Source: Octopus vulgaris (lineage: Eukaryota). From it: a stretch of DNA of 64,000 nt. The notes below the pieces were generated by a model. It ran no database searches. It had not been told where the DNA came from and was given only the letters and a program-made list of their open reading frames with translations. This document shows positions 1,815 through 56,534 of this stretch, one piece after another; the stretch's first letter is position 1; every line of letters starts with the position of its first letter. Location of the stretch: contig OX597818.1 in assembly GCA_951406725.2 (NCBI GenBank), positions 85,870,001 through 85,934,000 of the forward strand, given 5' to 3'. Made by a program: the position numbers and the translations under genes.

Positions 1815-3246
1815 ATATATATATAGGCAATATTTATATCCAACTTAACGTAGATGCTTTGTTAGAACGCCGAATACCGCATTATTAGCGCTGAGAGAAC
1901 TTCTCATATAGGCTTTTGGGTCATAGAAGCACACTCGTACAGAAGAGACTCAACAGTTATTGGCCGCCGGATCTCCCATAACCTATGATTTCAGTCTACT
2001 GGACATCATCAGTTGGAGGCGTCCGGTTAAGTCTGCTACGATGTATGTGTGTGGTTTTATGCAGCGAATGCTTATAAGTGGGGTTCTGTCAATGCTAATA
2101 ACGTAATATTCGGTGTTCTAACAAGACATTCACATTAAGCTGGATATAAAGATTGCCTTTTGATACTATTATTCTGTCGTATGTATGTATGTATGTATGT
2201 ATGTATGTATGTATGTATGTATGTATGTATGTATGTATGTATGTATATATGTATGTATGTATGATGACGGGGTAGGCAAACACAGACACAAGTACACACA
2301 CACCCACACATATATATACGACGGGCTTCTTTCAGTTTCCAACTACCAAATCCACTCGCAAGGCCTTTGTCTGCCCGACGCTATAGTAGATACTTCCCAG
2401 GTGTCATGCAATGGGACTGAACCCGGAACAATGTTGTTGGGAAGCAAGCTTCTTATCACACAACCACGCCTACGTCTCTATGATAAAAAAAAGATAAAAA
2501 TAAACCCTGATAGAATAAATATTAAACTTTCAGGGCGGTACTCCAGCATGGCCGAAGTCCAGTGACTGAAGCGTAAAGGATAAAGAGTATAAAAGAAGCA
2601 GTAGAAGTAAAATGCCTGTCGAGTTTACAGGAGATGAGAGTTCAAATCCCACAGCAGATATCCAAACGGGTTTTAAACCCAATATTTACATGCTATTATT
2701 TATAGCTTATCTACTTCGAGTTAAACCGTTCCGAAAAAGAATTAATATATTAATTTTATTATTGTTGAAATAACTAAATCTCTAATTGGTTAGATTTCTT
2801 GTTTAAGGCAAGGGTTTTGTGGTTGGGAAGCTTGGTTTGCAAACACGTTGGTCTCAAGTTCAGTCCCATTGCGCGGCACTAAAGCCTCGAGACGGCCAAT
2901 GCCTTGACAGTAAATTTGGAAAACGGAAACTGTGTGGAAGCTCGCTATACACACACACACAGTGGAAACGTATCAAATTAATGTGTTTTTATTAATACTG
3001 CAGGTTTCTTTCTGACTTTGACACGAGGCCAGTTATTTTGAGGGGAGGGGAAAACCGATTACATCAATCCCAGAACTGAATTGGTGCTTATTTTTATCAA
3101 TGCTGTAAGAACGAAAAACAAATTCGATCTCAGCGGCATTTGAACTCAGAACGTACAGTTGCCACTAAGGTCGATTTTGTCTGTCCTTTCGGAGTGAATA
3201 AGGAAAAAAGTACCAGTAACGTATTGGGGTGATGGTATCGACTAAT

Positions 3247-3827
3247 AAGGCGGCGAGCTGGCAGAATCGTTAGCACGACGGGCGAAATGCTTAGCGGTAT
3301 TTCGTCTGCCGTTACATTCTGAATTCAAATTCCGCCGAGGTCGACTTTGCCTTTCATCCTTTCGGGGTCGATAAATTAAGTACCAGTTACGCACTGGGGT
3401 CGATGTAATCGACTTAATCCGTGTGTCTGTCTTTGTTTGTCCCCTCTGTGTTTAGCCCCTTGTGGGTAGTAAAGAAATAGGTATTTCGTCTGTCCGCTGA
3501 AATCGACTTTGTCTTTCATCCTTTCGGGGTCGATAAATTAAGTACCAGTTGCGTACTGGGGTCGATGTAATCGACTTAATCCGCGTGTCTGTCCTTGTTT
3601 GTCCCCTCTGTGTTCAGCCCCTTGTGGGTAGTAAAAGAAATAGGTATTTCGTCTGTCGTTACGTTCTGAGTTCAAATTCCACCGAGGTCGACTTTGCCTA
3701 TCATCCTTTCGGGGTCGATTAAATAAGTACCAGTCACGCACGGGGGTCGATATAATCGACTTAATCCAATACTCTGTTCTTGTTTGTCTTCTCTGTGTGT
3801 AGCCCATTTGTGGGTAGTAAAGAAATA
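3247..3827 (+). mobile_element. Nested array of three SINE-B units (Tx1-type tail), inserted in an older SINE-B copy
   Basis: Head AAGGCGGCGAGCTGGCAGAATCGTTAGCA and three tails ending GTGGGTAGTAAAGAAATA. Outer 16-bp TSD GATGGTATCGACTAAT at 3231-3246 and 3828-3843. Inner 15-bp TSD GGTATTTCGTCTGTC at 3480-3494 and 3643-3657. Confidence 0.9.
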
Positions 3828-4240
3828 GATGGTATCGACTAATCCCCTCCCTTTAACATGGCTGCTCATGTACTAAAATTTCAAGCAATTTTTTATTTAG
3901 GTTACACGTTGATTGCAATATTTCCTGTGGCTCAAGTCTTATTTTCCGTCACTCACAGTAATTTCCGGTCCTACTATGATGCTCACTTAATTATCCTATT
4001 TTTAAAAGCTAGAATTTTAGAAATAATTACAGTAAAAGAAGATGTGTTAATAATAAAATTTTAAATACTGGAGGTAGCTGTGAAGATGCTGGCAGACATA
4101 CAGGTAGTAACAACGGCAACAAGCAAATGGTTTCTATGGCGATATACTGTAGCACTTTTAGTGGTTATTGTGACACAACAAGTGACTTCCAGTGACACGT
4201 CTAATGTATGCTGGTGTACTTTCTGTAACGGGCATTTATC

Positions 4241-11925: not shown

Positions 11926-13146
11926 GTCGAGTTTCTTTCAGTATTTTTCCAAAGTATCACACAATAGGACTGAACCTGGAGCCATGTAGGTTGAGAAACA
12001 AACTTCTTACCACAGTCACGTCTATTGTTATTGTTTAATTGTTTTAATATCGGTAGTATTGATTGTTTTAAAAAAAGCTGCTTATCAAAAAATATATTTA
12101 TTCCTGACGTGTGGAAGGCATATGACCCAGTGGTGAGACTGTTGCACTAACGATCACAAGATTGGCGTTTCGATTCCCGGGCCGGGAGCAAAACATACAT
12201 TTCATGTTGCTCCAGTTTACTCAGCTGTAAAAGAGTCGCCACCCTAGGGGATCTCGGTTACCTAAACAACAAGGAAAATGGGCAACTGGCATGATGAGTC
12301 CTAGGGCTCGAAACAGACAGAATTATTATTATTCACCTTATTTGGAAATGCATATGTGCATGAGAAATGTTTTTCTTTCATTCCGTAATGTCCAGGTTTG
12401 GCTGTGTGATAGAAAGTTTGATTTCGAATTCAGTACTTTAGGCAGATGGGCAAATGTCTTGTACTATAGCTTCGGGTAGACCATGCCTTGTGAGAGGATT
12501 TAGATATATATATAAATAAAACCGTCATTTACTTCAGCTGTTAATGTAGAGTAACAGTTCCCGTACTCTTGTACTTTCTCTTGTTTCAGTCATTATTGAC
12601 TATGGCCAAGCTGGGGCACTGCCTTGAAGAATTTTTAATCAAATGTATTGACTCTAGTAAACGAGGCTTTGGTCGGCCCGGGGTTATATAGTAGAAGACA
12701 CTTGCCCATGGTGCCACGCAGTGGGACTGAACCCGGAACCATGTAGTGGTGAAGCAAACTTCTTACCACACAGACATGCGCCTATAAGGTTGTTAATTTT
12801 TATTCTTATACTTAACTTTCATTCTTATACTTGTTTGTCATCGGACCGCGGCCTTGCTGGGGCACAACTTTGAAGGGTTCAAACGAATCGTTCTTAGTAT
12901 CATATTCTGTCGGTTCTCTATGATCGAATATCTAAAGCTACACATAGACAAATATATATGTACAGTTATATACAGCTATGGGTTAATTAGCATGCGTGTG
13001 TGTGTATGTGTGTGCGCGCACACACGCGTGTATATATATATGTGTGTGTGTATATATATATATATATAGGGGTCGATAAATAAAGTACCAGTTTCCCACT
13101 GGGGTCTTGTCCCCTCTATGTTTAGCCCCTTGTGGGCAGTAAAGAA

Positions 13147-13177
<31 letters not shown>

Positions 13178-13776
13178 AACACACACACACACACATATAT
13201 ATATATACATATACACATACACACATATATCAAAATAAGGAAAACACAGGTCGGTCCAAGGCTATAACAGAAAACACCTGCTTAAAGTACGCGCAGTGAG
13301 ATAGCCCGAAACCTCGTGGCTGCAAATATGATAACAGCTAGGTAGGTGTCTATTTTGTACAAATAATGATAATAATAATAATAACTATATATATACAAGA
13401 ACACCAGAGTATATTCCGCGGTATTTAGTTCAATCAGCGATACAAACAATAAAACTGAATAAAGTGTCCGATGCGCTACATAAAGGTAAACAATTCCTTA
13501 AAATTTATCTTAGAGTAACCTCCCTTGAATTCTTTAACATAGTCATATAGTTTTGCAGCTGGCAGAAACGTTAGCACTCCGGGCGAAATGCGTTGCCGTA
13601 TTTTGTCTGTCGCACATGTGTTCGTGAAGTAAGAATTGCTGTTTCGTGGTGTTAATATTGTTAACAACTGTTGTTTCTTGTTAAACTGTTGAATAACTTA
13701 ACTGTTGGAGTTTTCAATTGAAAACACTTAGTGCTTGTGGTAGCACGCGTTGTTCATTCCCCCTTTGGGGGGAAGA

Positions 13777-15299
13777 ATGTCGTCTAGCATGGAGCCTACC
13801 GTTGGAGCAGAAATACTTGTTTCTCCTGTTGAGAGGAGGAAATACATGTCCGGCGAGGAGCCAACTACAGACAAGGAAATAGGGGTTTCCCCCGCTACAA
13901 GAAGGAATAGCAGAGAGGATAATATATTTGATATTTTTGGAGATGTGTCTGAGAGCTCGTCAGAACTTTCACCAGAAGAGTTTCCGACTTTGCCAGAGAA
14001 CAAAGGCATTGTGTCGAAGAGAATAATTGATGTGCCTAGCATCCAGATAGAACCAAAAAATGGGAAAAAAAGTTTTGCGTTGGCTGCTGGGTGTGGAACC
14101 CAGATACTGTCGACGAATAAAAGCGAAATTATGAAATACAGCAAAATGATGGAAATAACTGACAACGGTGTGAAAATTGAACCTCCGCAAAAGTTATTAC
14201 AGGAAGAAAAGCAAAAAACAATAATTTTCAAAACATATTGTCTACAAAAAAGAAAAATTGAAAGAATGTCAGAAGAGAAAATAGAAAAGTGCTTAAAGCC
14301 AATATTGGGCGACGTAGTATTTCTGAGAAGAGGAAAAAATTCGGAACGGTGGAAGTTAGGTTCACCAATAAAGAAATAGCACACAAGAACTCAGTTGAAA
14401 CGTTGAAAACGAACGACGTGGAGTTAATACCCTATTATATGGGGATGAGGACGTCGCGAATAAAAATTACAAGGGTCCCGCCAGAGGTCGAACCGATGTG
14501 GTTGTTGGCGGCAGTCCTAATCAAAGAGGTAGAAAAAATTACTCTCCTCCAGGCTACAGCTACGGAAAACCCACGCTGGGATGGTCAAACAATTAATCTT
14601 CTCATTCAAGCGGACCCTAAAATAATTCAAACAATTCCTGAGACAATTGAGGTAGGGGAGGAGAACCTCGTGGTGTTTGTTGAGGGCCGAAAACCTCGAT
14701 GTTTTTTATGTGGTCAATTAGGCCACATTCGAAGGAACTGCAAGGAAAATGAAGAAGAGGAGGAAGAGGAGAAAAAAGACAAAGAGGAAGAAGATAAAGA
14801 AGAAACAGATGAGAAAAAAACAACAAACAAAAGAAAAATACAACCAGCAACCCAGCCGAGAGCGGTGACTACTACAGAACAACGACAAAAAAAGACTGCC
14901 AGAAGAGAAAAAGAAGAAAAAGGCATAATAGCCGTTTACACTAAAGATACTGAGCTCATGAGAGACATTCAACTCATAAAGACTGTAAAAAAAATTGATA
15001 ACCTTTCAGAGGAATTTATCAATTACGACATATATGAAGTCTCAAATAAGACTTATAGAATTCTACAAAATAAGTACAGAAAGACTGAATCTTCATTGAG
15101 ATTAGATTTTAACAAGTCGATATTTCATGGATTACCAGCTCCGATCCCGCGAGAAAAGGAAAAGGTAGAGATTCCCCCTCCACCTGATAATTCTGTGTCG
15201 GTGGTGAGACGGGATTTTGACAAATCTATTTCCCAAGACCGTCCACCTCCGACCTTGGATAAAAAAGGTGGAGGGTCCCCCTCCACCGGACAATCCTAA
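13777..15299 (+). pseudogene. Tx1 ORF1 (gag-like nucleic-acid-binding protein), one -1 frameshift near 14334-14340
   Basis: ORFs 13750-14379 and 14289-15299 join as VVFLRRGK/KFGTVEVRF. Zinc knuckle CFLCGQLGHIRRNC followed by an acidic/basic tract. Confidence 0.85.
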
Positions 15300-15311
15300 T
15301 TAAACAGGTAA

Positions 15312-18300
15312 GTGATGGCTATTCACATTGGTTGTTTAAATGTTCATGGCCTGTTGTCAAGCTGGAAGCAAGGACGCTTTCTGAATGACATCAGGTCGAG
15401 AAATTTGGATGTAATTGTTGCAACGGAAACCCGGGTGAAGGGGCCAAGAGATCTGCTCCCCCTCCTGAACGGCTACGAGAAATACGTTTCTCCGAGTCGG
15501 GCGGGAGGTGGAGGTGGGGTGTTGGTCCTACTAAAAAGAAACCGGGTAGCCGAGAAAAAGTTGTTTTTTTCTGACCCAGAAGGCAGGCTGGTCGTTCTCG
15601 ACTTGACATTCAGTTGTGGCAAGACAATCAGGCTGGTCGCTATTTACGCACCAAACATTATTGGCCCGCAAACTGAATACTTTCGTGGCCTAGGAAAGTT
15701 CCTAGCCACGTCGCATTCACTAGTAGTGTTAGGAGACTCTAATACAATATGTGCAGCACACACAGATTGTGTTGGCTCAAACTCGAACATGAACAGAAAA
15801 TGTAACCTTAGGCTTTCGGGATCTGCTAAGTCAATTTCAGCTAGCAGATCCATATAGGTTGGAGCACCCGAACACTCCACATTGAACGTGGTCAAATAGT
15901 GACGGGTCTACCAGAACATATCTAGATAGGATTTTAATTAGAGAAAAAGATAAGTCCATAGTTGAGTGTCCACAGTTTTTTCTAGTCAGCTACAGTGACC
16001 ACAAGATGGTTACCTGTAAACTGACGGTAGATAAGTTGCATAGACAGGGATCTGGCTACTGGAAACTCAATACGTCCCTTTTGGCGATTGAGGAGTACAG
16101 AAAGCGGATCAAGATGTTAATACAGAGGGCATTAACAGGTACCATCATTAATAGCAAATGGTGGTACGCCCTAAAAAGAGCCATCAAATATGAGTCTATT
16201 AGGTTTAGCATAAGTTTAGCTAAGAAGGGACGTAAAATAGGAGATGGTCTAGTTAAGGAACTAGAAGAAGCCTGGAGGACTGGTAATACAGACCAAGCGA
16301 GGGTGAAAAGACTGGAGTTAAACCAGCATCTTGAAGCCCACCACATGGGAAGTATTACCAGAGCTAAGTTACGTGCAATGGGAAGTGAAGGAATCAAAGC
16401 CGCTGGATGGGCCCGAGTGGTGGAAGCTCGGCAAGGAAATAGTTCCTCTATTCGGTCTTTGACGAATCAAAATGGTGTCTTGATAAACGAACCCGAGAAA
16501 ATGTGTGAGGTCTTTCGGGAGTACTTCGCCCAGCTGTTCGGGGGTGACGGCGGTCCTGGTGGTGGGAGAGCCCTCGAGGACTTTCTTACCGGGCTGCCGT
16601 GCCTCTCGGGGTCGGATGCGGAGTCTTGCGAAGGGCCAATCACACCTGAGGAGGTGATGGAGGCTTTGGCCGATTGTAAAGCGGGTAAGTCACCGGGACT
16701 TGATGGTCTTCCGTACGAGCTGTATAAATGTATGCCAGACTTGTTCGGGCAACTACTGACTGACGTGTACGCGAACTGGAAACAGAATGGGTTTATCCCC
16801 AGATCTGTGCGCCGGGGAGTAGTGACGTTGGTCAGAAAGGACCCGGACAAGGGGGACGTTCTAGAGAATTTCAGGCCCATCACTCTGTTAAACGCAGAAG
16901 TGAAGATTTTGGCCAAGGTTCTAGCAAAAAGGTTGGCGCGTGTCGCGAATGGTATAGTCGGGGAGGTACAGACATGTGCCATCCCAGGCAGAACCATTCA
17001 GGATACCCTCCATCTTATTCGCTATACCATAGAGAGGTTTGGTAATAAATCTGGCAAAGGTGGGGCATTGGTGCATTTGGACCAGTCTAAAGCTTTTGAT
17101 AGGGTTGACCATCGATACCTAGCGACTGTACTTGCGCAGTTTGGCCTGGGCCTTGGCTTCCTCAGGTGGTTTATCGCTTTGTACCACAACATTGACTCGA
17201 TAGTTCGGGTGAACGGTTTCCTTTCGAAGCCGTTCTGCATCAGACGCTCGGTTCGTCAAGGATGTCCGCTTTCACCACTTTTGTATGTGATGGCTCTCGA
17301 GCCATTACTGCAAAGGTTGAGTGGCATCCCGAGAGAACCAGGACTAGAGGAGTTTGTTACGGCTTTCGCGGATGATATCACTATCAGTGTAACCACAGTG
17401 GCACGCCTACGTGAAGTAGGTAAGACTATTGAGGCTTACGAGGAGGTAGCAGGAGCAAAGATTAACCGGGAAAAGTCGGTCGGCTTGCAGCTCGGCACCT
17501 GGGTTGGCAAGTCGATGCCTTCAGACAGTGTTGTTAGGCGCTGGACGGAGGGACCGGTTAAGTTGCTGGGAGTCTGGTTTGGACCAGGCCTCCAGATAGA
17601 GAAGAACTGGACGGAGGTATTGAGCAGGGTGGCTGCAGTAGTCAAGACCTGGTCTTGGCGGTGGCTATCCCTGAAAGGGAGGGCGGAAGTGGCCAATGTG
17701 TTTATCGCATCGGTCATTACCTACCGCCTGACCGTCGTGCCCTGTCCGGATTCGTGGTTGATCAGGTTGGAGAGACAGCTCTTTCGCTTTTTGTGGAAGG
17801 GCAGGTCGCCACTTGTGAAACGCTCTGTCTGCTGTCAAAAGCCTTTAAATGGAGGTTTAGGGATGCCTTGGTTAATGATGCGCAGACATGCGTTGAGGTT
17901 GAGGCACCTCTGGATTCTCCTGGATAGTGAACGGGTGTGGTCTCCGCTGGCCAGACAAATGTTCCCTGAGTTCAAGAGTTTTTGCGAACAGGAAGCCTGG
18001 TGTTCTCGTAGACCGAGGTCGAGTGAGTGGCATAAAGAGTGCCGTAAGGCCCTCTTGCTGTTCCGGCGCTCGGGCAACGCCAGCGGTGGGGGTTCCACAC
18101 GGATTTTATATAGTGGGTTGGTAGAGTCTAAATGTGACGATGGCCTGGGGTCGACTCTAGGTCTCGGATTTATTCAACTGGACAGCTTGTTTCATCGTAC
18201 ATTCGGGTTGAGAACGTTGGACAACTTCCAAAAGTCCTTAACCTGGCAATGCTACAGAGGTGCCTTGCCCGTTTGGGATAAGCTCGCAAGACATGGTAAA

Positions 18301-18720
18301 CGTCAGTCGCCGACCTGTCCAAGATGCGGGGGGGGGGACAGGGAAACCGTCCCTCACGCTATTGTTCAGTGTCCGGAGATAACTGAAATGTGGGCTTATG
18401 CTGAACATCTGTTGTCCGGCGAAGGAAGAGTACGGCTGTCGACTGAGTCAATTATAAAAATTGACCCACCGGGAGTTCTAACGATCGAAGGTAAGAATTG
18501 TTTTCTCACGGTTGTAGCAATAGCAAAAGAGGCTGTATGGAAGACTAGGATAAAAGGAATTAAGACAGGCAACTTTATCTCTGGTGACAATTTACGATCC
18601 TTTTTTTCTTTTCATTTGAAAAGGAAACTGTGGCTGGAGAAGAGGTGTCTGTCAGAGTGTACGTTCCAAAAGAGATGGAAGTATGTTGCACGAGTGTTGT
18701 GCGTGCAAGGAACCGTGTGA
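15312..18720 (+). pseudogene. Tx1 ORF2 (AP endonuclease + reverse transcriptase); frameshift near 15800-15830 and TGA at 15883
   Basis: APE motifs LNVHGL, ATETR, IYAPN, LGDSN, TWSN, YLDRI, SDHK and WKLNTSLL. RT motifs KSPGLDG, FRPITLLN, LDQSKAFDRV, VRQGCPLSP, FADD. C-terminal CPRC...HAIVQC. Open for 904 aa from 16006. Confidence 0.95.
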
Positions 18721-19869
18721 ATAGACGAGGAAAAAAAGAAAAAAAGGAAAAATAAAAAGGTATCAGCGATAGATCGGGGCTTGTGGGATCGGAGCGTAAC
18801 TTGATCATCGCTTCATTTGTATTGTTTTTGTACTGTGTATTCCATTCGATTTTTATGTATTGTATTTTATTTTTGATGTCACATTTATGTAAAATCATAT
18901 CGATTCACTGATTCCATCAGTTGTACTGTCCATATCTATGTTTGGCCCCCGGTGGGCAATTCGTATTTTGTCTGCCGTTACGTTCTGAGTTCAAATTACG
19001 TCGAGGTCGACTTTGCCTTTCATCCTTTCGGGGTCGATTAAATAAGTACCAGTTACGCACTGGAGTCGATATAATCGACTTAATCCATTTGTCTGTCCTT
19101 GTTTGTCCTCTCTGTGTTTAGCCCCTTGTGGGTAGTAAAGAAATACATATAGTTTTGCAGTGTGTTTTCGGAGACGCTAGTGGTAGAAAAATGGATAAAC
19201 TCCAAAGCAGCTTATAGTTATGTCTCATTGCATTTCGAGTTCAAATCCTGCCAGTGTAGTAGACTTGGCTTCGTTCTTTCGGGATCAGTGAAGCGAATAG
19301 CAATTTGCCTGTTACTTGAACCTTGTGTACAAATGGCTATTATCAAAGAAAATATTTAAAATATTTAGGCGCAGAAGTGGCTGTGTGGTAAGTAGCTTGC
19401 TTATCAACCACATGGTTCCGGGTTCAGTCCTATTGCGTGGCACCTTGGGCAAGTGTCTTCTATTATAGCTTCGGGTCGACCAAAGCCTTGTGAGTGGATT
19501 TGGTGGACGGAAACATATATATGTATATGTTTGTGTGTCTGTGTTTGTCCACCCCACAACATCGCTTGACAACCGATGCTGGTGTGTTTACGTCTCCGTC
19601 ACTTAGCGATTCGGCAAGAGAGACTGATAGAATAAGTACTAGGCTTACAAAGAATAAGTCCTGGGGCCGTTAAGTATTTTGTCCGGCGTGCTAACGATTC
19701 TGCCAGTTCGTCGCCTTAATAATCTTTTCTACTATAGGCTCAAGGCCTGAAATTTTGGGGTAGAGGACAAGTGGATTACATCGATCCCAGTTGTCAATTG
19801 GTTGGTACTTATTGTATTGATCCCAAAACGGATGAAAGGCAAAGTCAACGTCGTCAGAAATTGAACTAG

Positions 19870-22200
19870 GCACGACGGTCAGGTGGTAACAGATAACAGA
19901 TGCAATCTAAGCATTCGCCATTTCCGCCTGGCTCTTCAGGGCTAGTTTTGTCTCAGTCCATTTTGGGGGGAGACTAGCCATCTTGTTTGTCATATCTTCC
20001 TAGATCTTGTCCAACGAGAAGTCTAGACCAAACCAATCTCCGAACAATTTAACAGGTTCGTCCATCCAGTGCCCTACGTCCTGCTGGATAGGATGGACCT
20101 ACCACTCCAGGTGCCAACATGCAGGACCATCAAATCCTCCTGATTAATTTTTGCTTCAGTCACTGCCTCGCAGTTCGAGTAGTGCCGATCGCCTCGATGT
20201 GTTTGGTGTATATACAAATACGGATCCTCCATATCCTAGTTCTCCCGAGTTGCCTTTCAAAACCTCCAACTTCTGCAGTATAGGCTCGAGAGTCAGTACG
20301 TACAGAAGTGGAGAGAGAGGAATCCTTGACAGACCGGGCGCATGAGACTAAACGGTTCTGTCAAGTGGCCATTTTCTTTGATCATGAGCAAATGTCGTAC
20401 ATTGCAGCGATCCAACTTTTGAAGGATCAGAAACCAGATGGCTTGAGGATAATCACCGTGGTCTACCTATCAAATGCTTTCGGCTGATCTGAGCCCCATC
20501 CATATCAGGTGGTTTACTCACCCTTACTATGATGCATCGCGGGAGGTGGAGGTTGTCGCTAATATCTCTGTTTGGTACAGCGCATGTCTGTGCCTCACCA
20601 ACCAGAGTCTCAACGAAAAGCGTCAACCTCTTAACTCACACCTTGGTCAAAATCTACAACTCTGCATTTAACAGAGTTATGACCCTGAAGTTGTTAAAAA
20701 TCACCCCCCGCTCTTTCAGGATCCACACTACCTCTATTTGTTGGGCAGTTGATTTTAGCGTTCTGCTGCCAGTTCCAGTAGACATCTACCAAGAGGTTTC
20801 CGAACAAGCCTGATATATAACGATAAAGCTGAATGGGCAGACATCCAGCCTCGACGACTTCGTCGTGCAACCCGTCATCGCATCCCGTATTTTGTCAGCT
20901 GTAATCAATGTTTCCCAGAAACCCACAACCCCAGTCGAGAGCCGTGGCAGGCCATTGAAGTAGGCGATAAAGTCCACCTCCGTTTCCAGTCTCCCATTCA
21001 CACCAAAGAGTTGGGCAAAGTGCCACTGAAAAGCTGCACACATCTGCTTGGAAGCGAGTAGCACGCGCACTTTCAAATCCATCAAAGATTAAATTGTGGA
21101 TTTGTTGCTGCGTTTCACCTCCTCCACCCGAGTTCATTGAATGGCTCTTTTTCCTTCATGCCTTACAGAACGTGTCTTCGCTATGACAATGCAACCTTCG
21201 TACTTAACATTGAAAAATAGATCAAGGGCCAATCTTACTGCCAGCACATCAGTGGCGATGTCATTTTCAAGTGCCCTTTATAAGTTACTACCTATCTTAC
21301 TCTCTACTCTCGAATTCCTTCTCTATTTCCTTAGCAGACCTTATAGGTTTTAATCGAATAATCCTTTTCAGGGATAACCACCTTGGTTGTTGACGATTGC
21401 CCTCGTGAACTCCATCTTAACTAGTACCCTAGTCTGGTCTCAAAAAACTTGGCGCACCGGGAAGGACGCGTTCAGTTTCTCTTTCTCTGCAGCCAATCTA
21501 GGTTGATCGTACAAATCACAAATTTGTGGTCTCTGTAGCCGACAATTTTGAACTGAGGATAACCTGTGCTATACCTGTCTACTAACCTACAGATTACTGT
21601 ATCTAGATACAATAAGGGTACTTTTTATCCATGTTCACATTGGCACATGAGGGAAAATCTAGTCGGTACCTGCTAGTCAGCTAGAAATGACTGACAGGTT
21701 TGCGAGGTTCTTAACGCCCCTCTCACATTAGCTAGCCCCACACAATCTACACGTGCATCCATAATGGCGTTCCAATCATTCACTAGCACTAAAGAGAAAG
21801 AGGTCCCAAGGAAAATCCCGACTACCTGAAGAAATCCAGCTGCTCCGATCCAGTGGGGGCATGCAAGGAGACTAGTCAAAAGACCTTCACTACTGTTGTA
21901 CGTGTCCAGGAAGATCAATCGTATCTCGGGGGGCCTAGGCTTTTCTAGAACAGCATCGCTACTCCCCCCCCCTCATTCCAGATCGAATAAGAGATGCGAT
22001 TATCTGAAAATCACCAAAAATGGGTGCCAAGGCGCATGTGTCGGAAATCCTGGTCTTGTTGACGGCCATTACATCCAAACTTAGCGACCCGAGGTCAGTT
22101 AGCAAGTGACTTTTTTTCCAGTCTGACGTGCATATATGTTACTCTCACTTAAGGCTGGTTGAATCGGAAACAGGTTACTTACCTGTCTGATGGTTCACGA
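19870..22200 (-). mobile_element. Second, heavily decayed Tx1-like LINE (ORF2 relic)
   Basis: Minus-strand relics match the intact copy: GYRDHKFV (SYSDHKMV), KLNAS (KLNTS), QMCAAFQWHFAQLFG (KMCEVFREYFAQLFG), NFRVITLLNAEL and HLTVVP. Confidence 0.85.
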
Positions 22201-31121: not shown

Positions 31122-32884
31122 AATAAAAATTGATTGTGCAAAAGTCGGAGCAAAAGGGTTAAATGTCACAAATGATATTCGAACATAAAGAAGGCACGTT
31201 AACTCTTTAGAAATATAAACATTTGCGATATAAGAATTAAAAAAAAAAAGCAACTCGAAGGATTTTAACATAATAAAACGTAAACGTACACCTACCACAC
31301 TGGCTGTTTCGTTCGCTAAGCTACGCACCATGGACATCAATAAAGTCTGTAATGTTGTAGCTGAAGGATATTTTTATGTGAATAACAGGACCATGTACAA
31401 AATAAATGGAACAATGTGAAGAGACAAGACAATGTCACAGCTAAAACATACGTTATGTCAGAAAACAGCTCTCCCGAAATTACTTCATCAAACCAACTAC
31501 AATGACTTCTTTCCGTATTTCTCTTCCTATTCAATACACCAAGCATCCGCTGCCACCACCACCCGTGTGTCCCGCGACCTGCTAGAGATAGCAGTCGAAT
31601 TTGTCATTAATCATATTCTCTAGTTTTACTTGTACCAGTCATTGGACTTCGGCCATGCTGGGGCACCACATTGGAAAGTTTTTGTCGAACAAATTAATCC
31701 CAGTACTTACGTTATTTTAAAAATATTGCACTAATCCTATTGGCGTCATTTTGCCAAATTGCTAAGATACGAGGACATAAATAAACTAACACCGGTTGTC
31801 AAAGGGGGAAGATAATTGTGATAAACATTGAAGCAAAGGTACACACACACACATGTATATATACGACTGGCCATCAAATTCATTCATAAATCACGGGTTA
31901 GCCTGGAGCTAGAGTAGAAAACACTTGTACAGTGGGATTGAACCCGAAACTAAGCGGTTGTAAAGCGGGGTTCTTAACTACGCAGCCATACCAGTGCCTG
32001 TTCTACAATGCGTCCAGTTTCTCTACAAGAGGGAGACTGGACGCATTGGTCTTACATATACCAATGTCAGGAAAAAAAATGAAATATTTGATCAAGTTAG
32101 GTTCAACTGTGGCTAAATAATAACAACAACAAGCACGGTTGTATGCTAAGAAGCTAGCTTCCCAACCACGCGGTGTCGGGTTCAGTCCCACTATGTGGCA
32201 CCTTGGGAAAATGTTTTTTACCCTAGCGATAGGCAGACCAAAATCTTGTGAGTGGATTTAGTACATGGAAACTGAAAGAAGCCCGTCATACACACACACA
32301 CACAATTATATAGGCGTGGCTGCGTGGCAAGAAGCTTGTTTCCCAATAACATGGTTCTAGGTTCAGTCCCACTGCGTAGCACTTTGGGCAAGTGTCTTCC
32401 ACTGTAACTTGGGGATGACCAAAGCCTTGTGAATGGATTTGGTTAACGGAAACTGAAAGAAGCCCGTATATATGTGTGTGTGTGCGTGCGTGTGCGTTTG
32501 CCTCACCACCGCTTGACAACTGGCGTTTGTTTATGTCCCAGTAACATAGCGGTTCGGCAATAGAAAAAACAACTACTTCAGTTGATTCGTTCGACTAAAA
32601 ATTCTTCAAGTCAGTGCCTCAGCATGGCCGCAGTCTAATGATTGAAAGAAGTAAAAAGTAAAAGAAAAGATAATATATATATATATCGTAAGGCAGTGAG
32701 CTGGCAGAAACGTTAGCACGCCGGGCAAAATGCTTAGCAGTATTTCGTTTGCCGTTACGTTCTGAGTTCAAATTCCGCCGAGGTCGACTTTACCTTACAT
32801 CCTTTCGGGGTCGATTAAATAAGTACCAGTTACGTACTGGGGTCGATGTAATCGACTTAATCCGTTTGTCTGTCCTTGTTTGTC

Positions 32885-32927
<43 letters not shown>

Positions 32928-33819: not shown

Positions 33820-35920
33820 GTGTGTGTATGTGAGTGTTTGTGTGTGTGTTTGTGTGTGTTTGCATGTATTCACTTATATATCTATGAGTGTGTCTTTGTA
33901 TCTATGTTTGTACTCGCCACCACCCGTTCCACCTGCGCGTCCTCTCCGCATATTCCAATGACTGAGCGGTTTGACAAAAGAAACTAATAGAACAGCTAAC
34001 AGATCAAAAAAGAAACAAACAAAACCAGAAGTCCTGGTGTCGATTTGTTCGACTAAAACCCTTCAAGGCGGTGCCCCAGCATGGGCGAAATCCAATGAGT
34101 GAAACAAGGGAAGCCTAGTTGTTAAGTCCATCAATAGTTACCCCACCTTTACTTGCCACACACAAACACACAGATATACACATGCATACACAAACACACA
34201 AACACACACACACATACACACACATACACATATAGAAACGCATGCACATACACGCAATATACATATATATGCGTACACAAAGACACGCTTATAACAACGC
34301 ACATATACTTATACATACACACACATAACGCAGCACATGCATGCATTTACATACACGTACACACGTACACATAACACTGCACAAACACAAACATAATGCA
34401 GCACACATATACATATGCTCAACCAAACACACACACCATGTCAAACTACATCTCACACACATTTACATATTAGCACACTATCATAAACTCATAATCATAC
34501 ACATATATACACGCACACTACTCGCAAATAGACACACATTAATGAACACCCAAACACGCACGCACGCACACGCACACACACGTGCGTGCGCATTCTGATA
34601 TACAATCTCTCTGACACAATCTTTTTATATCTCTCTCTCTTTTCTTCTCTCTCTCTGTCTCCCTCTATTCTCTCTTTCTCGCACACTCTCTGACACACCG
34701 TCTCTCTTATACACACAATCTCTCCCTTCCCCTCCCTCTTTTTCTTTCTCTCTCTCTCTCTTTCATACACACACACATATACACATACACACATATACAC
34801 ACACATATACGTACATACATATATATACACACATATACACACACTCTCTCTTTCTCAACTCTCCATACATTTTCTGTCACAATTTCGCTCACTTTTCGTC
34901 TCTCTCTCTCCCTCTCTTTTTTTTCTCTCCCTCCCACTCACTCTTTCTCTCTCCCACTCACTCTTTCTCTCTCTCTCTCTCTCTTTCTTTCTCTCTCTCT
35001 ATCTTTCTCTCTCTCTCCCTTTCTCTCTCTCACACACACACTGTCATTCTTCCTCTCCCTCTCTGCTTCACACAATTTCTGTTTCTTTCCACCTGCCCCT
35101 TCCCTCTCTTCTCTTTCTCTCTCACTCACACACATTCTCTCCACCTCTCCCATGAGACACACTCCCATGAGACGTCAAAGCGCCCCCTGTCATTAGTTGT
35201 CGGTATTTTTCTTGCCAAGTAGCCATTACATTTGTTTGACAGGAAACGAAAAGATAATAATTTGGGCTCGAAATTATCGGAAGACGTGTAGAACGAAACA
35301 ACTTAACAACTTCGAAATCCCACATTTCTTCATCTCCAGGAAACGGACCATTTTCCATTAGTTAGGGAGCCTGTTTGCTGCATTCGAAGTAATCTGGATT
35401 CTGTTAAACTGTTCTAGATTAAAAGATACAATATCTGATTCAAGAGTTCGGTTCCTGCTGCGAAACATTCGATTGTTTCCATGGACAAACAAAACGAATA
35501 ATTTCTATTGGCATTGGTTTATCATGCAAAGAATTCGGCACCAATGTGTCTGAGAAAGACAAGAGCTACATCAAACCAGCGGTTAATATTTCAGTAGCCA
35601 GAACCAAATACACATTTCTCATGCTATTTATGATTTCTAAAGTTGCCTTTTATCCTCAACGCAAAATGATAAGAAGTCTATTTATTTTAGGTACTAGGTC
35701 TGAAATTTTATGAGGAGAGGCAAGTCAATTACATCGAACCCAGTGCATAACTGGTACTTATTTTATCGAACCCGAATTTGAACTCAGAATGTAAAGACGG
35801 ACGAAATATCGCCATACCTTTTGCGAGAGATTCTTGCAGCTCATCACCTTATCAGCAACAGCAGCAGCAATGATAATAATAATAATAATAATTCTAGTAA
35901 ACAACAACTATAATAATCCT

Positions 35921-36462
35921 AGTTAATTTATCGACTCTAAAAGGATGAAAGACAAAGTCGACCTCGGCGGAATTTGAACTCAGAATGTACCGACAGACGA
36001 AATACCTATTTCTTTACTACCCACAAGGGGCTAAACACAGAGAGGACAAACAAGGACAGACAAACGGATTAAGTTGATTACATCGACCCCAGTGCGTAAT
36101 TGGTACTTAACTTATCGACCCTGAAAGGATGAAAAACAAAGTCGGCCTCGGCGGAATTTGAACTCAGAACGTAACGGCAGACGAAATACGACTACGTATT
36201 TCGCCCGGCGCGCTAACGTATCTGCCAGCTCGCCGCCTTTAATAATAATCCTTTCTACTATAGGCATAAAGCCTGAAATTTTGGAGTGAAGAGGATAGTC
36301 GATTGCATCGACCCCAGTGCGAAACTGGTACTTATTTTATCGACCCTGAAAGGATGAAAGGCAAAGTCGGCCTCGGCAGAATTTGAACTCAGAAAGTAGC
36401 GACAGGCGAATCTCCGCTAAGCATTTCGTCTAGCTCACTAATGATTCTGCCAGCTCGCCGCC
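35921..36462 (-). mobile_element. SINE-B cluster including a self-nested unit
   Basis: On the minus strand the tail ...AAAGAAATA is followed directly by GGTATTTCGTCTGTC (35992-36006) and a second body. A copy with the alternative (ATT)n tail lies at 36240-36462. Confidence 0.85.
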
Positions 36463-36464
36463 AG

Positions 36465-37080
36465 GGTCAAACTTAGGAATGAGCAAGTGTCTCCGCTGTG
36501 CCGCATCTGCAACAGAGTGGATGAAACCATTGCCCATATCACGATCGAATGCCCTAGACTTGTCCGAAATAACTACAAGGTGTGGCAACAGGACCAGGTA
36601 ACAAAGGTGCTACATTGGAAATTGTGCGAAACGTGGTGGATGGAGAGAGGCAAGACGTGGTATGAGCACAAACCGCAGAGATTGGCGGAGTCGGAGAGTA
36701 GCAAAATCCTCTGGGATTTCCCAATCCAAACAGATCAGGTGCTAGAGCATAACAGACCGGACCTAGTGGTGGTGGACAAGGTGCACCACATATGCTATAC
36801 AGTTGATATTGCATGCCCCTTTGACCCAAGAATAGTCCAGAAGGAAGGCGAAAAGATAGATAGATACAACCCTCTTAAGTAAGAAATAGGCCGGCTATGG
36901 AAAATGAAGAAGATGAACATAGTGCCAATTATTGTTGTCTTTGGGAACAGTATCAGAAGGCATCAAGAAGAATATAAAGGAAATTGGAATAGAGTGCTCA
37001 GTAGAACTGTTACAAAAGGCTTGCCTCCTTGACATGGCCAGAATCATCAAGAAAGTATTAGATAACTGAAAAGAGCGAAT
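36465..37080 (+). mobile_element. R4/Dong-like (restriction-like endonuclease) LINE 3' fragment
   Basis: CRICNRVDETIAHITIEC (CCHC), HNRPDLVVVDK, DIACPFD, KEGEKIDRY (PD..D..K endonuclease), followed by (AAT)n. Confidence 0.85.
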
Positions 37081-51996: not shown

Positions 51997-52001
<5 letters not shown>

Positions 52002-52068
52002 CTTTACTGCCCACAAGGGGCTAAACATAGAGGGGACAAACAAGGACAGACAAAGGGATTAAGTCGAA
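51997..52068 (-). mobile_element. 5'-truncated SINE-B tail in (TA)n
   Basis: TCGACTTAATCCC...GCCCCTTGTGGGCAGTAAAGAAATA. A similar fragment lies at 13068-13149. Confidence 0.85.
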
Positions 52069-52201
52069 TATATATATATACTAGCAGCATAGCCCGGCGT
52101 TGCCCGGGTATGTAAGAGCCCCTAGTAGGCAACGACTAATCCCAATGTAGTCCTTTCCTCCAGGGAACGAAGGTGCATGTGGACGTTGCAATGTCTTGTC
52201 T

Positions 52202-55200
52202 TCACAGGAATACTTCTGTATATACGATGTTCCTAGCTGTCCGTTTGGGCGAAAACATGAAAACATCATTGCGCCTCCCAACGCGTGAACAGCCCACGTA
52301 GAGTTGACCGTGGGCGAAGCACTGTTCGCCCAAATGTAACCCAGCGACTTGTAGCGTTTGGCCTTGGGATTTATTGATGGACATTGCGAAGCAGAGTTTA
52401 ACAGGAAACTGAGAACGCCTGAAGTGGATTGGTAGGTCAGCGCCCGACGGTTGAAGGTGCATCCGTGGAATGAAGACGTCCTCTCCGTTCCCACAACCGG
52501 TAAGTATTGTGACCGTTATTAAATGTGGTGCCAAATGTTTCACAACCAAACGTGTGCCGTTGCACTGTTTAGGTGGAACCAAATTCCTGATGAGCATAAT
52601 GGGCGCACCGACTTTTAACTTCAGGATGTGTGGTGGCAGGCCTGGCGGTTCAAGTGAATTCAGGAATTCAACAGGATAATCGGCAAGCTGGGCGGGGTCT
52701 GCTATCCTATCTATAGATTTGTAGACGTGGACATCACCAGGAATAGCTTCAAGTAGCTGGATATTGATGGAGTTGACGGTTGTATTTTTGGGTGCGAGAA
52801 TAGCTCTGCCTCCCAGCCATTTTAGGTCGCGTAAATTGTTTTGTAGGTCGTGGAAGACAGCGTCCCGGAGGCTAGCAGGGGTGTCGACAATGGTGCAAAG
52901 TGAGTCCAATTGAACGTAGCCATCCGCATCAGACAGCATCCTATTTTCACCGAGCGATAAGAGGTCCCTGGAGAATGCAGCGGATCCGCTGTCACCAATT
53001 AACTGCGCGCGCATGTTAGTTTGGAGGTGCAAGGGCCGCACATGTGCCCAAAGAGCTGACGACTTAAGGCACGCGCGCACGGCATCGGCACGGGTTCCTT
53101 TTGGAATAACAGGTAGAGTCTGCCTGAAGTCTCCTGAAAGAAGTAAAGTTAATCCTCCCATGGGGGCCGTAGAGTCTCTGATGTCTTGCAGGGACCTGTC
53201 CAGTGCCTCAAGGGCGCCTTTTAGTGCCATAGTGCACTCGTCCCATACGATGAGTTTGCATCTGCGCAGAATGTCGGCCTGTTCTGAGTTCTTGGCGATG
53301 TTGCAGATAGGTGACTCGGACTTTGCCAGATCGAGCGGCAGTCTGAAGGCAGAGTGGGCGGTTCTGCCACCCGGAAGCAACGTGGCCGCGATACCAGAGG
53401 AAGCTACAGCCAGGGCAATGTCCGTGTTGCGTCTGACCTCTGCCAGAATTAGTTTAGTGACGAAGGTTTTGCCAGTGCCGCCGGGTGCATCAAGGAAGAA
53501 AATCCCCCCACGTTGCTGTCTGACAGAGTCTACGATGGTGTTGTAGGCTATGCGCTGGTCTGGAAGCAGCCGTGGTTCATTATCTTGGACGTACTGGTGC
53601 AGTTCCTCAATGCAGTAGGATGTTTCGCGTAACAATTCAGCAGACATAACATTGGCGTGTTCACGTGTGGGTGGTGGAAGGCCGTACTCTGTTAAAGCAG
53701 ACCCACCCATATCGATGACAGCGTCTTCGAGTTGAATGAGCGCAAAATTGTAAATGAAGTTGGTGAACGTGATCTCGGCGGAAGGGCAGTGTTGCTGAGC
53801 CGAACGTAAGAAGTCGTGCGACATGTCATCCCTGTATTTCATCCAGAGACTTAGTGGATCACTAAGCTGACATTTTTGAAGAAGGATTGCGAAAAGATGT
53901 CGTAGGGCCGAATGCGTTTGCAGTAAAGCACCCTCTGCCATCGTGGCGTCCCACTGGGAGTCATCCTCTAGAAGGCCAAGTCTCATACATGCTTCCCTGA
54001 AGGTGTCGCACAGAACCCCATTGACGGTACGTATATTGGCGAAACCTGTTGGACCAGTGACCTCATGTAGAAGGAGACGGAGGTAGAAGCATTCTTGCTG
54101 GTTTGGCGGGATGTTGTAAACTCGACCCAGGCAGGAGTCAAACTTGACGCCTGGGAAGCTTTCGACGTTTTTGCCGGATTTCCGTCGAACCCAGGTGTTT
54201 TTAGACCACACGAAGTACGATGGGACCTGTGGGTACAAAAGCGTTCGAGCGAAGTCATCACGTTGGCATAATTTGAAGAAACCAGTCAACGTTGTGTCTT
54301 TAGGGCTGGTGGCTATCTGCACAGCAATTTGCTCTGTGAAGTAAATCCGCTGTCCATTTTCCAAGTGTACAGCAAGCTGCACCACAGCCGGGTGTCTCTG
54401 ATGGAGCGGGAAGCCGTAAATGCGCCAAAACGCTTCGTTGCTGCTGAGGTACCGGCCAGCCAAGTAGTTGGACACTTCGTTGCGACTGGTGGTCCTCTGG
54501 ATGCTGAACATGGCAGCATCGCTGCCTTTGTTGATATATTTGCAGACATATTGTATTGACCTGATGGAGCTGCAGAACTCAACGTTGACGTGGGCTTTGA
54601 ATATCTTCGACAGGAGAGGACAGTAGGGGACAATGTAGCTGTTGTCCACTTGATGTCGCCCAACCGTAATCGTGCGGCCTCCATTAGCTGGACTCCTTCG
54701 TTTGTACAGCGGATACCCATCGCCGCCTGTTTGAGTCTCCAAAGTGAACCGTTTAGGGAATCCCTTTGAGCAGGCTAATCCGTTTTTGTAGCATGGTGTG
54801 TTGGCATAATTTGGTCCACAGGGCCCGTGTACCATGGTAGTGCGGACAATTTCGTAGAGTCCGGGGTCCTCATCGGGGTCAGGAATCTCGGCGGAAATGA
54901 ATTTGTCAATGTCATTAGTCTCGATTTTATGAGTGAGCCAAATTAAGATGTGAGCATGTGGCAAGCCCCTCTTTTGCCACTCGACCGAAAACATGTGGCA
55001 CCTGACATGCCCGAAAATCTGACCCTTAACTATCAAATCCTTCATTTTGCCCAAATTCAGAGGGAAAACCCTAGCAACGATGTCGTGTCGATGGGTGTGA
55101 GATTGACCCGGGAAGAGTTCGCGAGTGATTTCGTCGCAGCTGGGATTGCACGTGTAGGTGATAAAGAGGTCCGGCCGGCCGTAAATGCGCACGTAGGTCA

Positions 55201-55378
55201 AGGCGTCTTGGGTCCTTTCACGCATATATCGCGGTCCTCCCGTGAAGGTGGAGGGTAGAATGCATGGCGAGAGGCGCAAGGCGGTTTCCTCGTGGGTCTC
55301 GCGTGCCTTTCTAGCCCTAGCAGCCGATGCCTTGGCCGTCCGAGGGCTGAGGAGGGTCCTTCTCTTCTTGGGTGGCAT
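52202..55378 (-). CDS. Helitron RepHel (HUH-Y2 Rep + PIF1-family helicase), 1058 aa from MPPKKRR
   Basis: Rep motifs LPSTFTGGPR, DLFITYTCNP, VEWQKRGLPHAH (HUH), YVCKYINKG (Y2). Helicase motifs LDAPGGTGKT, WDECTM, GDFRQTLPV, SINKSQGQT, HGQLYVGCSRV. No stops. Confidence 0.92.
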   Translation of the reverse strand: MPPKKRRTLLSPRTAKASAARARKARETHEETALRLSPCILPSTFTGGPRYMRERTQDALTYVRIYGRPDLFITYTCNPSCDEITRELFPGQSHTHRHDIVARVFPLNLGKMKDLIVKGQIFGHVRCHMFSVEWQKRGLPHAHILIWLTHKIETNDIDKFISAEIPDPDEDPGLYEIVRTTMVHGPCGPNYANTPCYKNGLACSKGFPKRFTLETQTGGDGYPLYKRRSPANGGRTITVGRHQVDNSYIVPYCPLLSKIFKAHVNVEFCSSIRSIQYVCKYINKGSDAAMFSIQRTTSRNEVSNYLAGRYLSSNEAFWRIYGFPLHQRHPAVVQLAVHLENGQRIYFTEQIAVQIATSPKDTTLTGFFKLCQRDDFARTLLYPQVPSYFVWSKNTWVRRKSGKNVESFPGVKFDSCLGRVYNIPPNQQECFYLRLLLHEVTGPTGFANIRTVNGVLCDTFREACMRLGLLEDDSQWDATMAEGALLQTHSALRHLFAILLQKCQLSDPLSLWMKYRDDMSHDFLRSAQQHCPSAEITFTNFIYNFALIQLEDAVIDMGGSALTEYGLPPPTREHANVMSAELLRETSYCIEELHQYVQDNEPRLLPDQRIAYNTIVDSVRQQRGGIFFLDAPGGTGKTFVTKLILAEVRRNTDIALAVASSGIAATLLPGGRTAHSAFRLPLDLAKSESPICNIAKNSEQADILRRCKLIVWDECTMALKGALEALDRSLQDIRDSTAPMGGLTLLLSGDFRQTLPVIPKGTRADAVRACLKSSALWAHVRPLHLQTNMRAQLIGDSGSAAFSRDLLSLGENRMLSDADGYVQLDSLCTIVDTPASLRDAVFHDLQNNLRDLKWLGGRAILAPKNTTVNSINIQLLEAIPGDVHVYKSIDRIADPAQLADYPVEFLNSLEPPGLPPHILKLKVGAPIMLIRNLVPPKQCNGTRLVVKHLAPHLITVTILTGCGNGEDVFIPRMHLQPSGADLPIHFRRSQFPVKLCFAMSINKSQGQTLQVAGLHLGEQCFAHGQLYVGCSRVGRRNDVFMFSPKRTARNIVYTEVFL

Positions 55379-55500
55379 TTTGGTGGATAGCAATGTGTTT
55401 GGCAAAGGTATAATAAAAAGGAACACGTGGGGTAAGTATTTTGGTGGATAGCAATGTGTTTGGTAAAGGTGTAATAAAAAGGAGCTCGTGGGGTAAGTAT
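55379..55500. repeat. Two-copy 61-bp tandem repeat just upstream of the RepHel ATG
   Basis: TGGTGGATAGCAATGTGTTTGG...CGTGGGGTAAGTAT at 55381 and 55442. Confidence 0.85.
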
Positions 55501-56534
55501 CCGAAAATCTATAAAAATGTACAAAAACGGCCAAAAAGCTGGCAGCAATGTGAGTGACAACAACGAAAAAGTCAAAAGTGATCAAACTGAACAAACGAAA
55601 GGAAAAGTTTTTTGATGCACACGACAAAAGTGGTTTATAATAAACCAAGAGTTTGCAAGTAGCGTCCGAGGACCGTTAGGGTACGTCAAAAATTGAAGGT
55701 AAAACGTTTGGGGTGGTAGTTATAAAGAAAGTTTAAACAAAAAAAGTATTCGAATAACTTGCGGCTGCAGCAGCTATTAGCAGAAGTGGCGGTGTTGGGG
55801 GTAAAGTCTCGAATGTAATTTCTTCCTGGTAGGAATTGGTTGGATCGAATTATCGATAGCTAAAAAGGTCAAGTTGCGTCCCCTAGACAGTCTGGTTTGT
55901 GTTTAATACACAAATTTGTTTGCTATGTGTGCCACATATGATTAAATTAACCGATTTTTTCCAATAATGTATCCTATTGGAATAAAAAGGGCTATATAGC
56001 TCCTTGGAGCAGACATGATGCTCGTTGTGAAAAAAAAAAGATTCCTGCCAATTTGTGAAAGATATTGTCGAAAATATGTCATCTTGAATTTGAACGCGAT
56101 TTCCCAAAATGGCATGATTTTATCGATTGTTTCTGATGGTAAGGTATTGCATGGAAAACTAACGTCAGAATTGAGTTTCTTAGGGTAACATTAAGCTTCA
56201 CCATGAGTTTGGTGAAAATCGATTGCAAGTTGTGAAAACTACCATAGATAATGCGTTGCATAAAAAAAGCTTAGATTCTCGAGTTGCGTCCCCTAGACAG
56301 TCTGTGGTTCGTGTTTATGGTTCTCGACCCCATGTCGAATTTATCAATTTTTTTTCAGAACTGGGGGAACTTTTCAAAATTTTCGGTGCGTTAGTTTTGA
56401 ATTATGACATTGGGCTATGTGTGTGTCAAGTTTCATCAGAATCGGTTGAAAGCCGTGGTCAGGGTGAGGGTACGAGAAAACAGACACACAGAAGCACGCA
56501 CAGACAAACTGCCGTTTATATATATATATATATA

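Follow-up and report, generated by a model that had tools for sequence, protein, structure and literature searches.

How does a dispersed SINE come to stand three times in a row, with short copies of one sequence between the units and a perfect duplication around all of them? The question is raised by positions 3231-3843 of the window, the 64-kb stretch of microsatellite-rich Octopus vulgaris DNA analysed here. We consider it probable (roughly 0.75) that the array arose through site-preferring insertion into the SINE's own head, with mobilization by an L1/Tx1-like LINE partner, the SINE carrying both the tail and the target of that LINE. All of the junction evidence comes from this one window, with one LINE copy and three loci.

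Layout of the array and identity of the SINE

The SINE tails of the array end at 3479, 3642 and 3827, and the 15-mer GGTATTTCGTCTGTC stands directly after the first two (3480-3494 and 3643-3657), letter for letter as an earlier sequence-only reading had reported. Around the whole lies the 16-bp duplication GATGGTATCGACTAAT (3231-3246 and 3828-3843), which is perfect, has no further occurrence on either strand of the window and adjoins both element ends apart from 2 nt (AA), which agree with the beginning of other copies. Of 52,554 non-microsatellite start positions, only 301 (0.6%) have an exact 16-mer that returns within 700 nt, even when element boundaries are not required, and the presence of the outer duplication at both element ends is therefore not a matter of chance. 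With SINE positions numbered from 3249, the features are as follows.

3161..3246, + strand: 5′ part of the older host SINE, a 5′-truncated copy of a sister family (core only, 72-75% identical to SINE positions ~90-166) that ends in the first copy of the outer duplication
3231..3246, + strand: outer 16-bp target-site duplication, left copy, at about core positions 153-168 of the old SINE
3247..3479, + strand: unit 1, a complete long-tail SINE in colinear order, its head containing A-box-like and B-box-like motifs and followed by the core and a LINE-like tail; 1 private change in 85-231
3279..3308, + strand: 13-bp head hairpin, the first base of whose 3′ arm is the insertion point 47/48 (z −3.5, 1/200 shuffles)
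3296..3311, + strand: in-register target copy, SINE positions 48-63, with C at position 61
3480..3494, + strand: target copy, positions 48-62, after tail 1
3495..3642, + strand: body of unit 2, SINE positions 85-231, without the B box, of the unit 1 subfamily, with 6 private changes
3643..3827, + strand: unit 3, SINE positions 48-231, of another subfamily, with 11 private changes; probably the body of the first-inserted (host) copy
3828..3843, + strand: outer 16-bp duplication, right copy
3844..3893, + strand: remainder of the older host SINE, with the short tail of the sister family

The array had been read as lying, with its 16-bp duplication, inside an older copy of the same SINE. The duplication and the old host stand, but the shared family does not: the host (about 3161-3246 and 3844-3893) has its core in common with the array SINE and ends in a different, short tail that belongs to the sister family, and we rejected the assignment on that account. 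Directly upstream of the array, two 5′-truncated old SINE copies (3009-3160 on the − strand and 3161-3246 on the + strand) lie back to back in opposite orientation. At 3471-3486, tail end and target start together form a short inverted repeat over the junction (GAAATA / TATTTC) that resembles the head hairpin.

The SINE is 231-233 nt long and has 30 profile matches in the 64 kb, fragments and sister families included. Unit 1 has an A-box-like motif at 3259 and a B-box-like motif at 3321, unit 3 has the B motif only and unit 2 has neither, as judged by the polymerase III A-box and B-box consensus patterns. A tRNA origin of the head was sought with ARAGORN, which returned 0 genes, and with Rfam, which returned no tRNA match in 3000-3950 at E values up to 10; a search of Rfam for a ribozyme or known RNA family in the unit produced only one chance match, and folding of the whole unit was not significant (z −1.5). 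The core presumably resembles a Deu/Nin-type domain. Ohshima and Okada reportedly described the tRNA-derived octopus SINEs OK, OR1 and OR2 in 1994. The SINE is probably one of the abundant octopus families (OK/OR1/OR2 or tRNA-Core/tRNA-Deu) or a sister of these. The available text on the octopus "tRNA-Core/tRNA-Deu" SINEs mentions neither nesting nor targeting (PMC8967140). SINEs account for 11.6% of the O. vulgaris assembly, whose recently active LINEs include L1-Tx1 families (PMC13282606); the words "nested" and "target" are absent from the accessible text of that annotation. Among 10 elements of the window tested for target duplications, 2 had them in complex sequence (16 and 15 bp), 3 in (TA)n and 1 as a low-complexity 10-mer, and 4 had none. 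The window also holds an uninterrupted 1157-aa Helitron Rep/helicase frame at 52202-55675 on the − strand (Helitron_like_N, PIF1, Pif1_2B), suggestive of a young Helitron.

What the 15-mer can say is limited by its origin. It corresponds to positions 48-62 of the SINE itself, and unit 1 contains the same word, with one base different, at 3296-3310; it would therefore recur in any repeat that starts there and proves nothing alone. The sequence-only reading took the perfect copies at 3480 and 3643, which bracket 3495-3642, as the mark of target-primed insertion rather than unequal crossover. The copies are real, but we rejected them as standalone proof because the 15-mer belongs to the SINE. Unit 2, like unit 3, starts at position 48, after which it is missing 22 nt between two TC dinucleotides, so that a truncated insert with its target-site duplication and a start at 48 followed by a 22-nt deletion at TC microhomology yield identical letters.

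The same nucleotide at other loci

The insertion point recurs in a second SINE copy of the window, which is interrupted by a LINE.

13544..13558 and 19146-19160, + strand: 15-bp duplication of the LINE-hosting SINE, left and right copies, 15/15 identical
13559..13612, + strand: head of the host SINE through position 63, with 13597-13612 as the left copy of a 16-bp duplication
13613..18961, + strand: L1/Tx1-like LINE at SINE position 47/48, 5,349 bp, with a 241-nt 3′ UTR
13744-14379 and 14262-15299, + strand: LINE ORF1 with zf-CCHC, in two frames
15312-15857 and 15886-18720, + strand: LINE ORF2, with the endonuclease in the first segment and RT and zf-RVT in the second
18927..18958, + strand: 3′-terminal segment of the LINE resembling the SINE tail (best 21/24)
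18962..19145, + strand: body of the host SINE, positions 48-231, with 18962-18977 as the right copy of the 16-bp duplication (15/16)

The LINE sits between SINE positions 63 and 48, and 48-63 is duplicated (15/16), with the single mismatch at a position that varies among SINE copies. Both flanking target copies carry T at position 55, a state present in 2 of the 14 copies examined, which indicates that both derive from one target molecule. The LINE belongs to the L1 group: it has two ORFs, and ORF2 combines an APE endonuclease, an RT and a C-terminal zinc-binding domain. Its Pfam domains are zf-CCHC, Exo_endo_phos, RVT_1 and zf-RVT, and each ORF is split over two frames. Matches in the PDB are to L1 and R2 alone, the better being human L1 ORF2p (E 7e-51 over 650 aa, against 1e-20 for R2), and the best named relative of its protein, 58% identical, comes from Argonauta hians. 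Its protein matches bore no family name or were annotated as "hypothetical". A CCHC-type ORF1 has been described as consistent with Tx1 in animals (PMC5203782), and architecture and targeting, rather than a tree, suggest placement of this LINE in the Tx1 clade. A second, decayed LINE of the same group lies at 19868-22138 on the − strand, with 28-42% amino-acid identity to the LINE at 13613-18961; it is broken off inside the RT and joined to a short-tail SINE body, not at position 48.

A second SINE-SINE junction at the same site lies at 35920..36240 on the − strand, where a full-length long-tail SINE (36240-36007) is joined at 47/48 to a unit comprising positions 48-134 (36006-35920). The 10-nt duplication around this locus is of low complexity, and the unit downstream of the junction could also be a short-tail copy with a deletion. 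The surrounding interval (35670-36465, − strand) contains four SINE units in a row: a short-tail copy, a long-tail copy, a partial copy from 48 and a further, deleted short-tail copy. At 19667-19716 (− strand), a SINE head breaks off at 49, near the same hairpin loop, and joins an apparently different repeat.

Counting the array once, three separate loci share the oriented nucleotide, a coincidence with a chance of about 2e-5 for 3 of 4 random events in a 231-nt element. The tail profile has 10 matches in the window: the LINE end, one tail interrupted by (TA)n and eight tails that are complete. Position 48 comes next after the LINE end and after 3 of the 8 complete tails; of the other five, two run into (TA)n, one into old SINE core and two into unique sequence, and the site preference is thus real but loose. 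A published criterion for a target-specific Tx1 family is that more than 20% of copies are flanked by one type of target (PMC4494074). At position 48 here stand the single LINE copy whose 3′ end is intact (1 of 1) and 3 of the 8 complete SINE tails, far too few copies for the comparison. After 8 of 9 junctions comes the 4-nt motif N-R-T-R (background 10%), which serves as a lead only since it was picked post hoc and two of the junctions are (TA)n. Long-tail SINEs are also embedded in (TA)n at 13069-13149, 51997-52073 and 32692-32897, possibly a second preferred target, and the tails of the copies at 13069-13149 and 51997-52073 are of the variant most like the LINE 3′ end. An exact scan for the 24-nt junction in bacterial and archaeal genomes gave 0 matches, which has no bearing on its frequency in octopus. 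A 43-codon open frame runs over the second junction; protein searches with it found 0 proteins of near length and 0 among longer ones, and an exhaustive search gave 1 match, to a protein of 675 aa (E 6e-5), without a passing aligned stretch.

The hairpin at whose 3′ arm the junction falls is a conserved feature of the SINE head. Its z values in three copies were −3.5, −4.3 and −2.8, 3 of 8 copies form all 13 pairs and the others 10-12, and the loop-closing pair is T-G, G-C or T-A. Such a covarying pair would be a sign of selection on RNA structure.

The LINE and the SINE are also alike at their 3′ ends. For 7 of the 8 long SINE tails, the best alignment along the whole 5.35-kb LINE is to its last 35 nt, and 5 of the 8 score above all 1000 dinucleotide shuffles. 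The array's own tails are weaker, with the real score reached by 4 shuffles in 1000 for unit 1, 38 for unit 2 and 546 for unit 3, the last not significant; none of 4 short-tail controls resembled the LINE 3′ end. These alignments relate the tail of the SINE to the end of an L1/Tx1-like LINE on its 3′ side. The match is only ~24-30 nt long, this LINE copy does not have the SINE's last ~9 nt, and the unit 3 tail is not significant, so the true partner may be a relative of the LINE seen here. A common 3′ stem-loop of LINE and SINE received no significant support from folding (no z-score below −1.7; a 4-bp stem with a 5-nt loop in 2 of 4 folds).

Ancestry of the units and rival accounts

The three units are not copies of one monomer. 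Of 8 shared variable sites, 6 set unit 3 apart from units 1 and 2, which have the same state there, and at all 6 unit 3 matches the LINE-hosting copy. A tree with the three units as one clade fails the AU test (p = 0.022; 7 copies, 147 columns), and unit 3, as a member of another subfamily, requires at least two retrotransposition sources. Pairwise differences among the units amount to 8, 15 and 20 of 114 positions. Because the units fall into two subfamilies with differences of this size, we rejected pure tandem duplication into a homogeneous satellite. The sequence-only reading's main claim, repeated target-primed insertion at one site, draws its support from the LINE at the identical nucleotide, the second SINE junction and these subfamily differences rather than from the argument originally offered for it. 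The accompanying proposal that the duplication regenerates the target is retained in altered form, as the target is better described as a site in every SINE head than as a junction of tail and 15-mer.

In the reading that we prefer, the LINE machinery would favor the SINE head site, nicking the bottom strand at 47/48 and leaving a 15-16-bp duplication. A full-length SINE, whose body is now unit 3, would have entered the old sister-family SINE and produced the outer 16-bp duplication. A 5′-truncated copy of the other subfamily (unit 2) would then have entered position 48, duplicating 48-62 and joining through 2-nt microhomology, and unit 1 would finally have entered the upstream, head-proximal target copy, joined in register by homology with the resident head. 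Pairing of its cDNA with that head would let unit 1 read as one intact SINE. The model needs such a homology-guided join since unit 1 is intact and yet the target copy in it and those downstream are not identical, with differences at position 61 here and at 48 and 61 in the second SINE-SINE locus, and the join would explain why the upstream target copy holds the newcomer's bases at both loci. The upstream copy would keep its native head context after each insertion, and every full-length newcomer would add a new target. Private changes fall from 11 in unit 3 to 6 in unit 2 and 1 in unit 1, as the proposed order predicts, although the counts may partly reflect unsampled subfamilies. Enzymes would be supplied in trans by the LINE family.

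The origin of unit 2 has another possible explanation. A single nested insertion could have made a dimer of units 1 and 3, with unit 2 added by local unequal crossover or slippage that copied positions 85-231 of unit 1 and the next 15-mer through TC microhomology. We regard this account, which is itself compatible with self-targeting, as possible but doubtful. It gives exactly the letters seen, a 15-mer like that of unit 3 and a body like that of unit 1, and it agrees with the grouping of units 1 and 2 (branch support 82/85, in a tree where no branch reached starred support) and with their common states at 175 and 195, which are absent from the other 5 copies compared. However, a local duplicate should age evenly with its source, and derived changes number 1 in unit 1 against 8 in unit 2 (p = 0.039), or 1 against 5 (p = 0.22) when the first 8 junction bases are left out. 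The 15-bp length moreover agrees with the duplications at the LINE and at two other insertions, the four lengths being 15, 16, 16 and 15. A separate third insertion for unit 2, truncated at its 5′ end as the sequence-only reading had it, is thus weakly favored over a deletion or local duplication that would give the same letters, and for the separateness of our second and third steps the odds are only a little better than even.

The whole trimer might instead have been made as RNA or cDNA and inserted once, either by template jumping, in which the reverse transcriptase passed from RNAs cleaved within the hairpin loop, with 48 as their 5′ end, onto other SINE RNAs at their 3′ ends, or from a multimeric master that was transcribed. 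This would suit a junction that coincides exactly with the edge of the loop in a conserved 13-bp hairpin and the single perfect 16-bp duplication that brackets the array; a multimeric transcript is also feasible in that the array has no run of 4 T, the polymerase III stop, and R2 is known to jump between templates (PMC3414825). G48 and T61 occur in all 3 junction copies, which would fit one source, but they are also the commonest states among 14 copies. Both the upstream and the downstream units differ between the array and the locus at 35920-36240, which argues against a single master. The LINE, with its same nucleotide, 16-bp duplication and shared private base, would be left unexplained unless there were two jumps and an RNA whose end lay at 63, and we think a preformed trimer unlikely. 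That a single monomer was simply duplicated in tandem where it stood, without targeting, as in the beginnings of a SINE-derived satellite, is very improbable: Tandem Repeats Finder does call a 162-nt, 2-copy array at 3341-3657, and SINE-derived satellites and SINE multimers are known (PMC10702118, PMC11481361), but unit 3 is of another subfamily and the same breakpoint occurs at two other loci, one of them with the LINE.

If insertion into the SINE head is the correct reading, a SINE that carries both the tail and the target of its LINE would send its RNAs often into earlier SINE copies. We lean slightly toward the wider proposition that the loop is closed, with the octopus SINE as the LINE's main safe landing site and a SINE lineage that has taken up the LINE 3′ end, presents its own target and forms head-(body)n arrays genome-wide. 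The long-tail lineage may itself have been born by such an insertion, the outer site of the array (3231-3246, core ~153-168) ending just about where the LINE-like tail begins in the long-tail family (~171), a possible trace of the family's origin. In RNA read through an array, the tail would be followed by the target, which could sharpen re-targeting. If true, the model offers a concrete route from a dispersed SINE to a tandem array without recombination, would explain local clustering of SINEs and warns that "multimeric" consensus sequences may be serial insertions. It would also represent a hyper-parasitic strategy of the safe-haven kind: by mobilizing the SINE, the LINE would enlarge its own supply of targets.

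Comparison with known systems

Zepp inserts into itself. In Coccomyxa and Chlorella it forms clusters of nested elements (PMC3446292), and it has been placed with the L1s (PMC5203782). An L1-clade element with nested self-copies is common ground with our case, but Zepp is an autonomous LINE with one large cluster per chromosome, in contrast to a non-autonomous SINE with small dispersed arrays. In Xenopus, Tx1L inserts into Tx1D (PMC4494074, PMC1950540), and here the likeness is that an L1/Tx1-type endonuclease has its fixed site within a repeat that is non-autonomous; Tx1D, however, is a DNA transposon that moves without Tx1L, and the targeting of Tx1L is strict whereas the octopus preference is loose.

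Tandem arrays of transposable elements through double insertion have been described for R1 in rDNA and for P-element dimers, with target-site duplications at the junctions and 5′-truncated units with intact 3′ ends (PMC5932611). The octopus array shares with double insertion the target copies of 15-16 bp between units and the independent origin of units, unit 3 being of another subfamily by the AU test cited above. The R1 and P elements are autonomous and the duplicated sequence is host DNA, whereas in octopus it is part of the SINE. In SINE arrays of molluscs and reptiles, a complete head likewise comes first, and the units after it are truncated at one fixed 5′ position. These arrays differ in having been ascribed to unequal recombination, as the clam SINE multimers were to recombination (PMC11481361), in that the consulted accounts report no LINE at the breakpoint and in that clam units are also 3′-truncated.

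The literature compared also covers PMC4758252, PMC3747384, PMC5804259 and PMC11121367. Within the texts reached, with most subscription papers and the repeat databases beyond its scope, the search returned no report of a SINE targeted by its own partner LINE or of this octopus case. Repbase, Dfam and SINEBase may already contain these families or mention the target. Target-specific Tx1 elements and SINE tandems separated by target-site duplications are already published; their closure into a self-targeting loop appears to be new.

The closest system is that of the crocodilian SINEU-3 and Tx1-Mar, which both prefer Mariner-N4_AMi; tandem SINEU-3 copies sandwich a target-site duplication and were read as sequential insertions (PMC4494074). 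There a Tx1 LINE, and here an L1/Tx1-like LINE, has a preferred site within a repeat in common with a SINE. Unlike that of SINEU-3 and Tx1-Mar, the proposed octopus partnership rests on similarity of the 3′ tails as well as on the site. The SINEU-3 target, moreover, is a third element, a DNA transposon, whereas the octopus target lies in the SINE's own head, so that full-length copies add targets.
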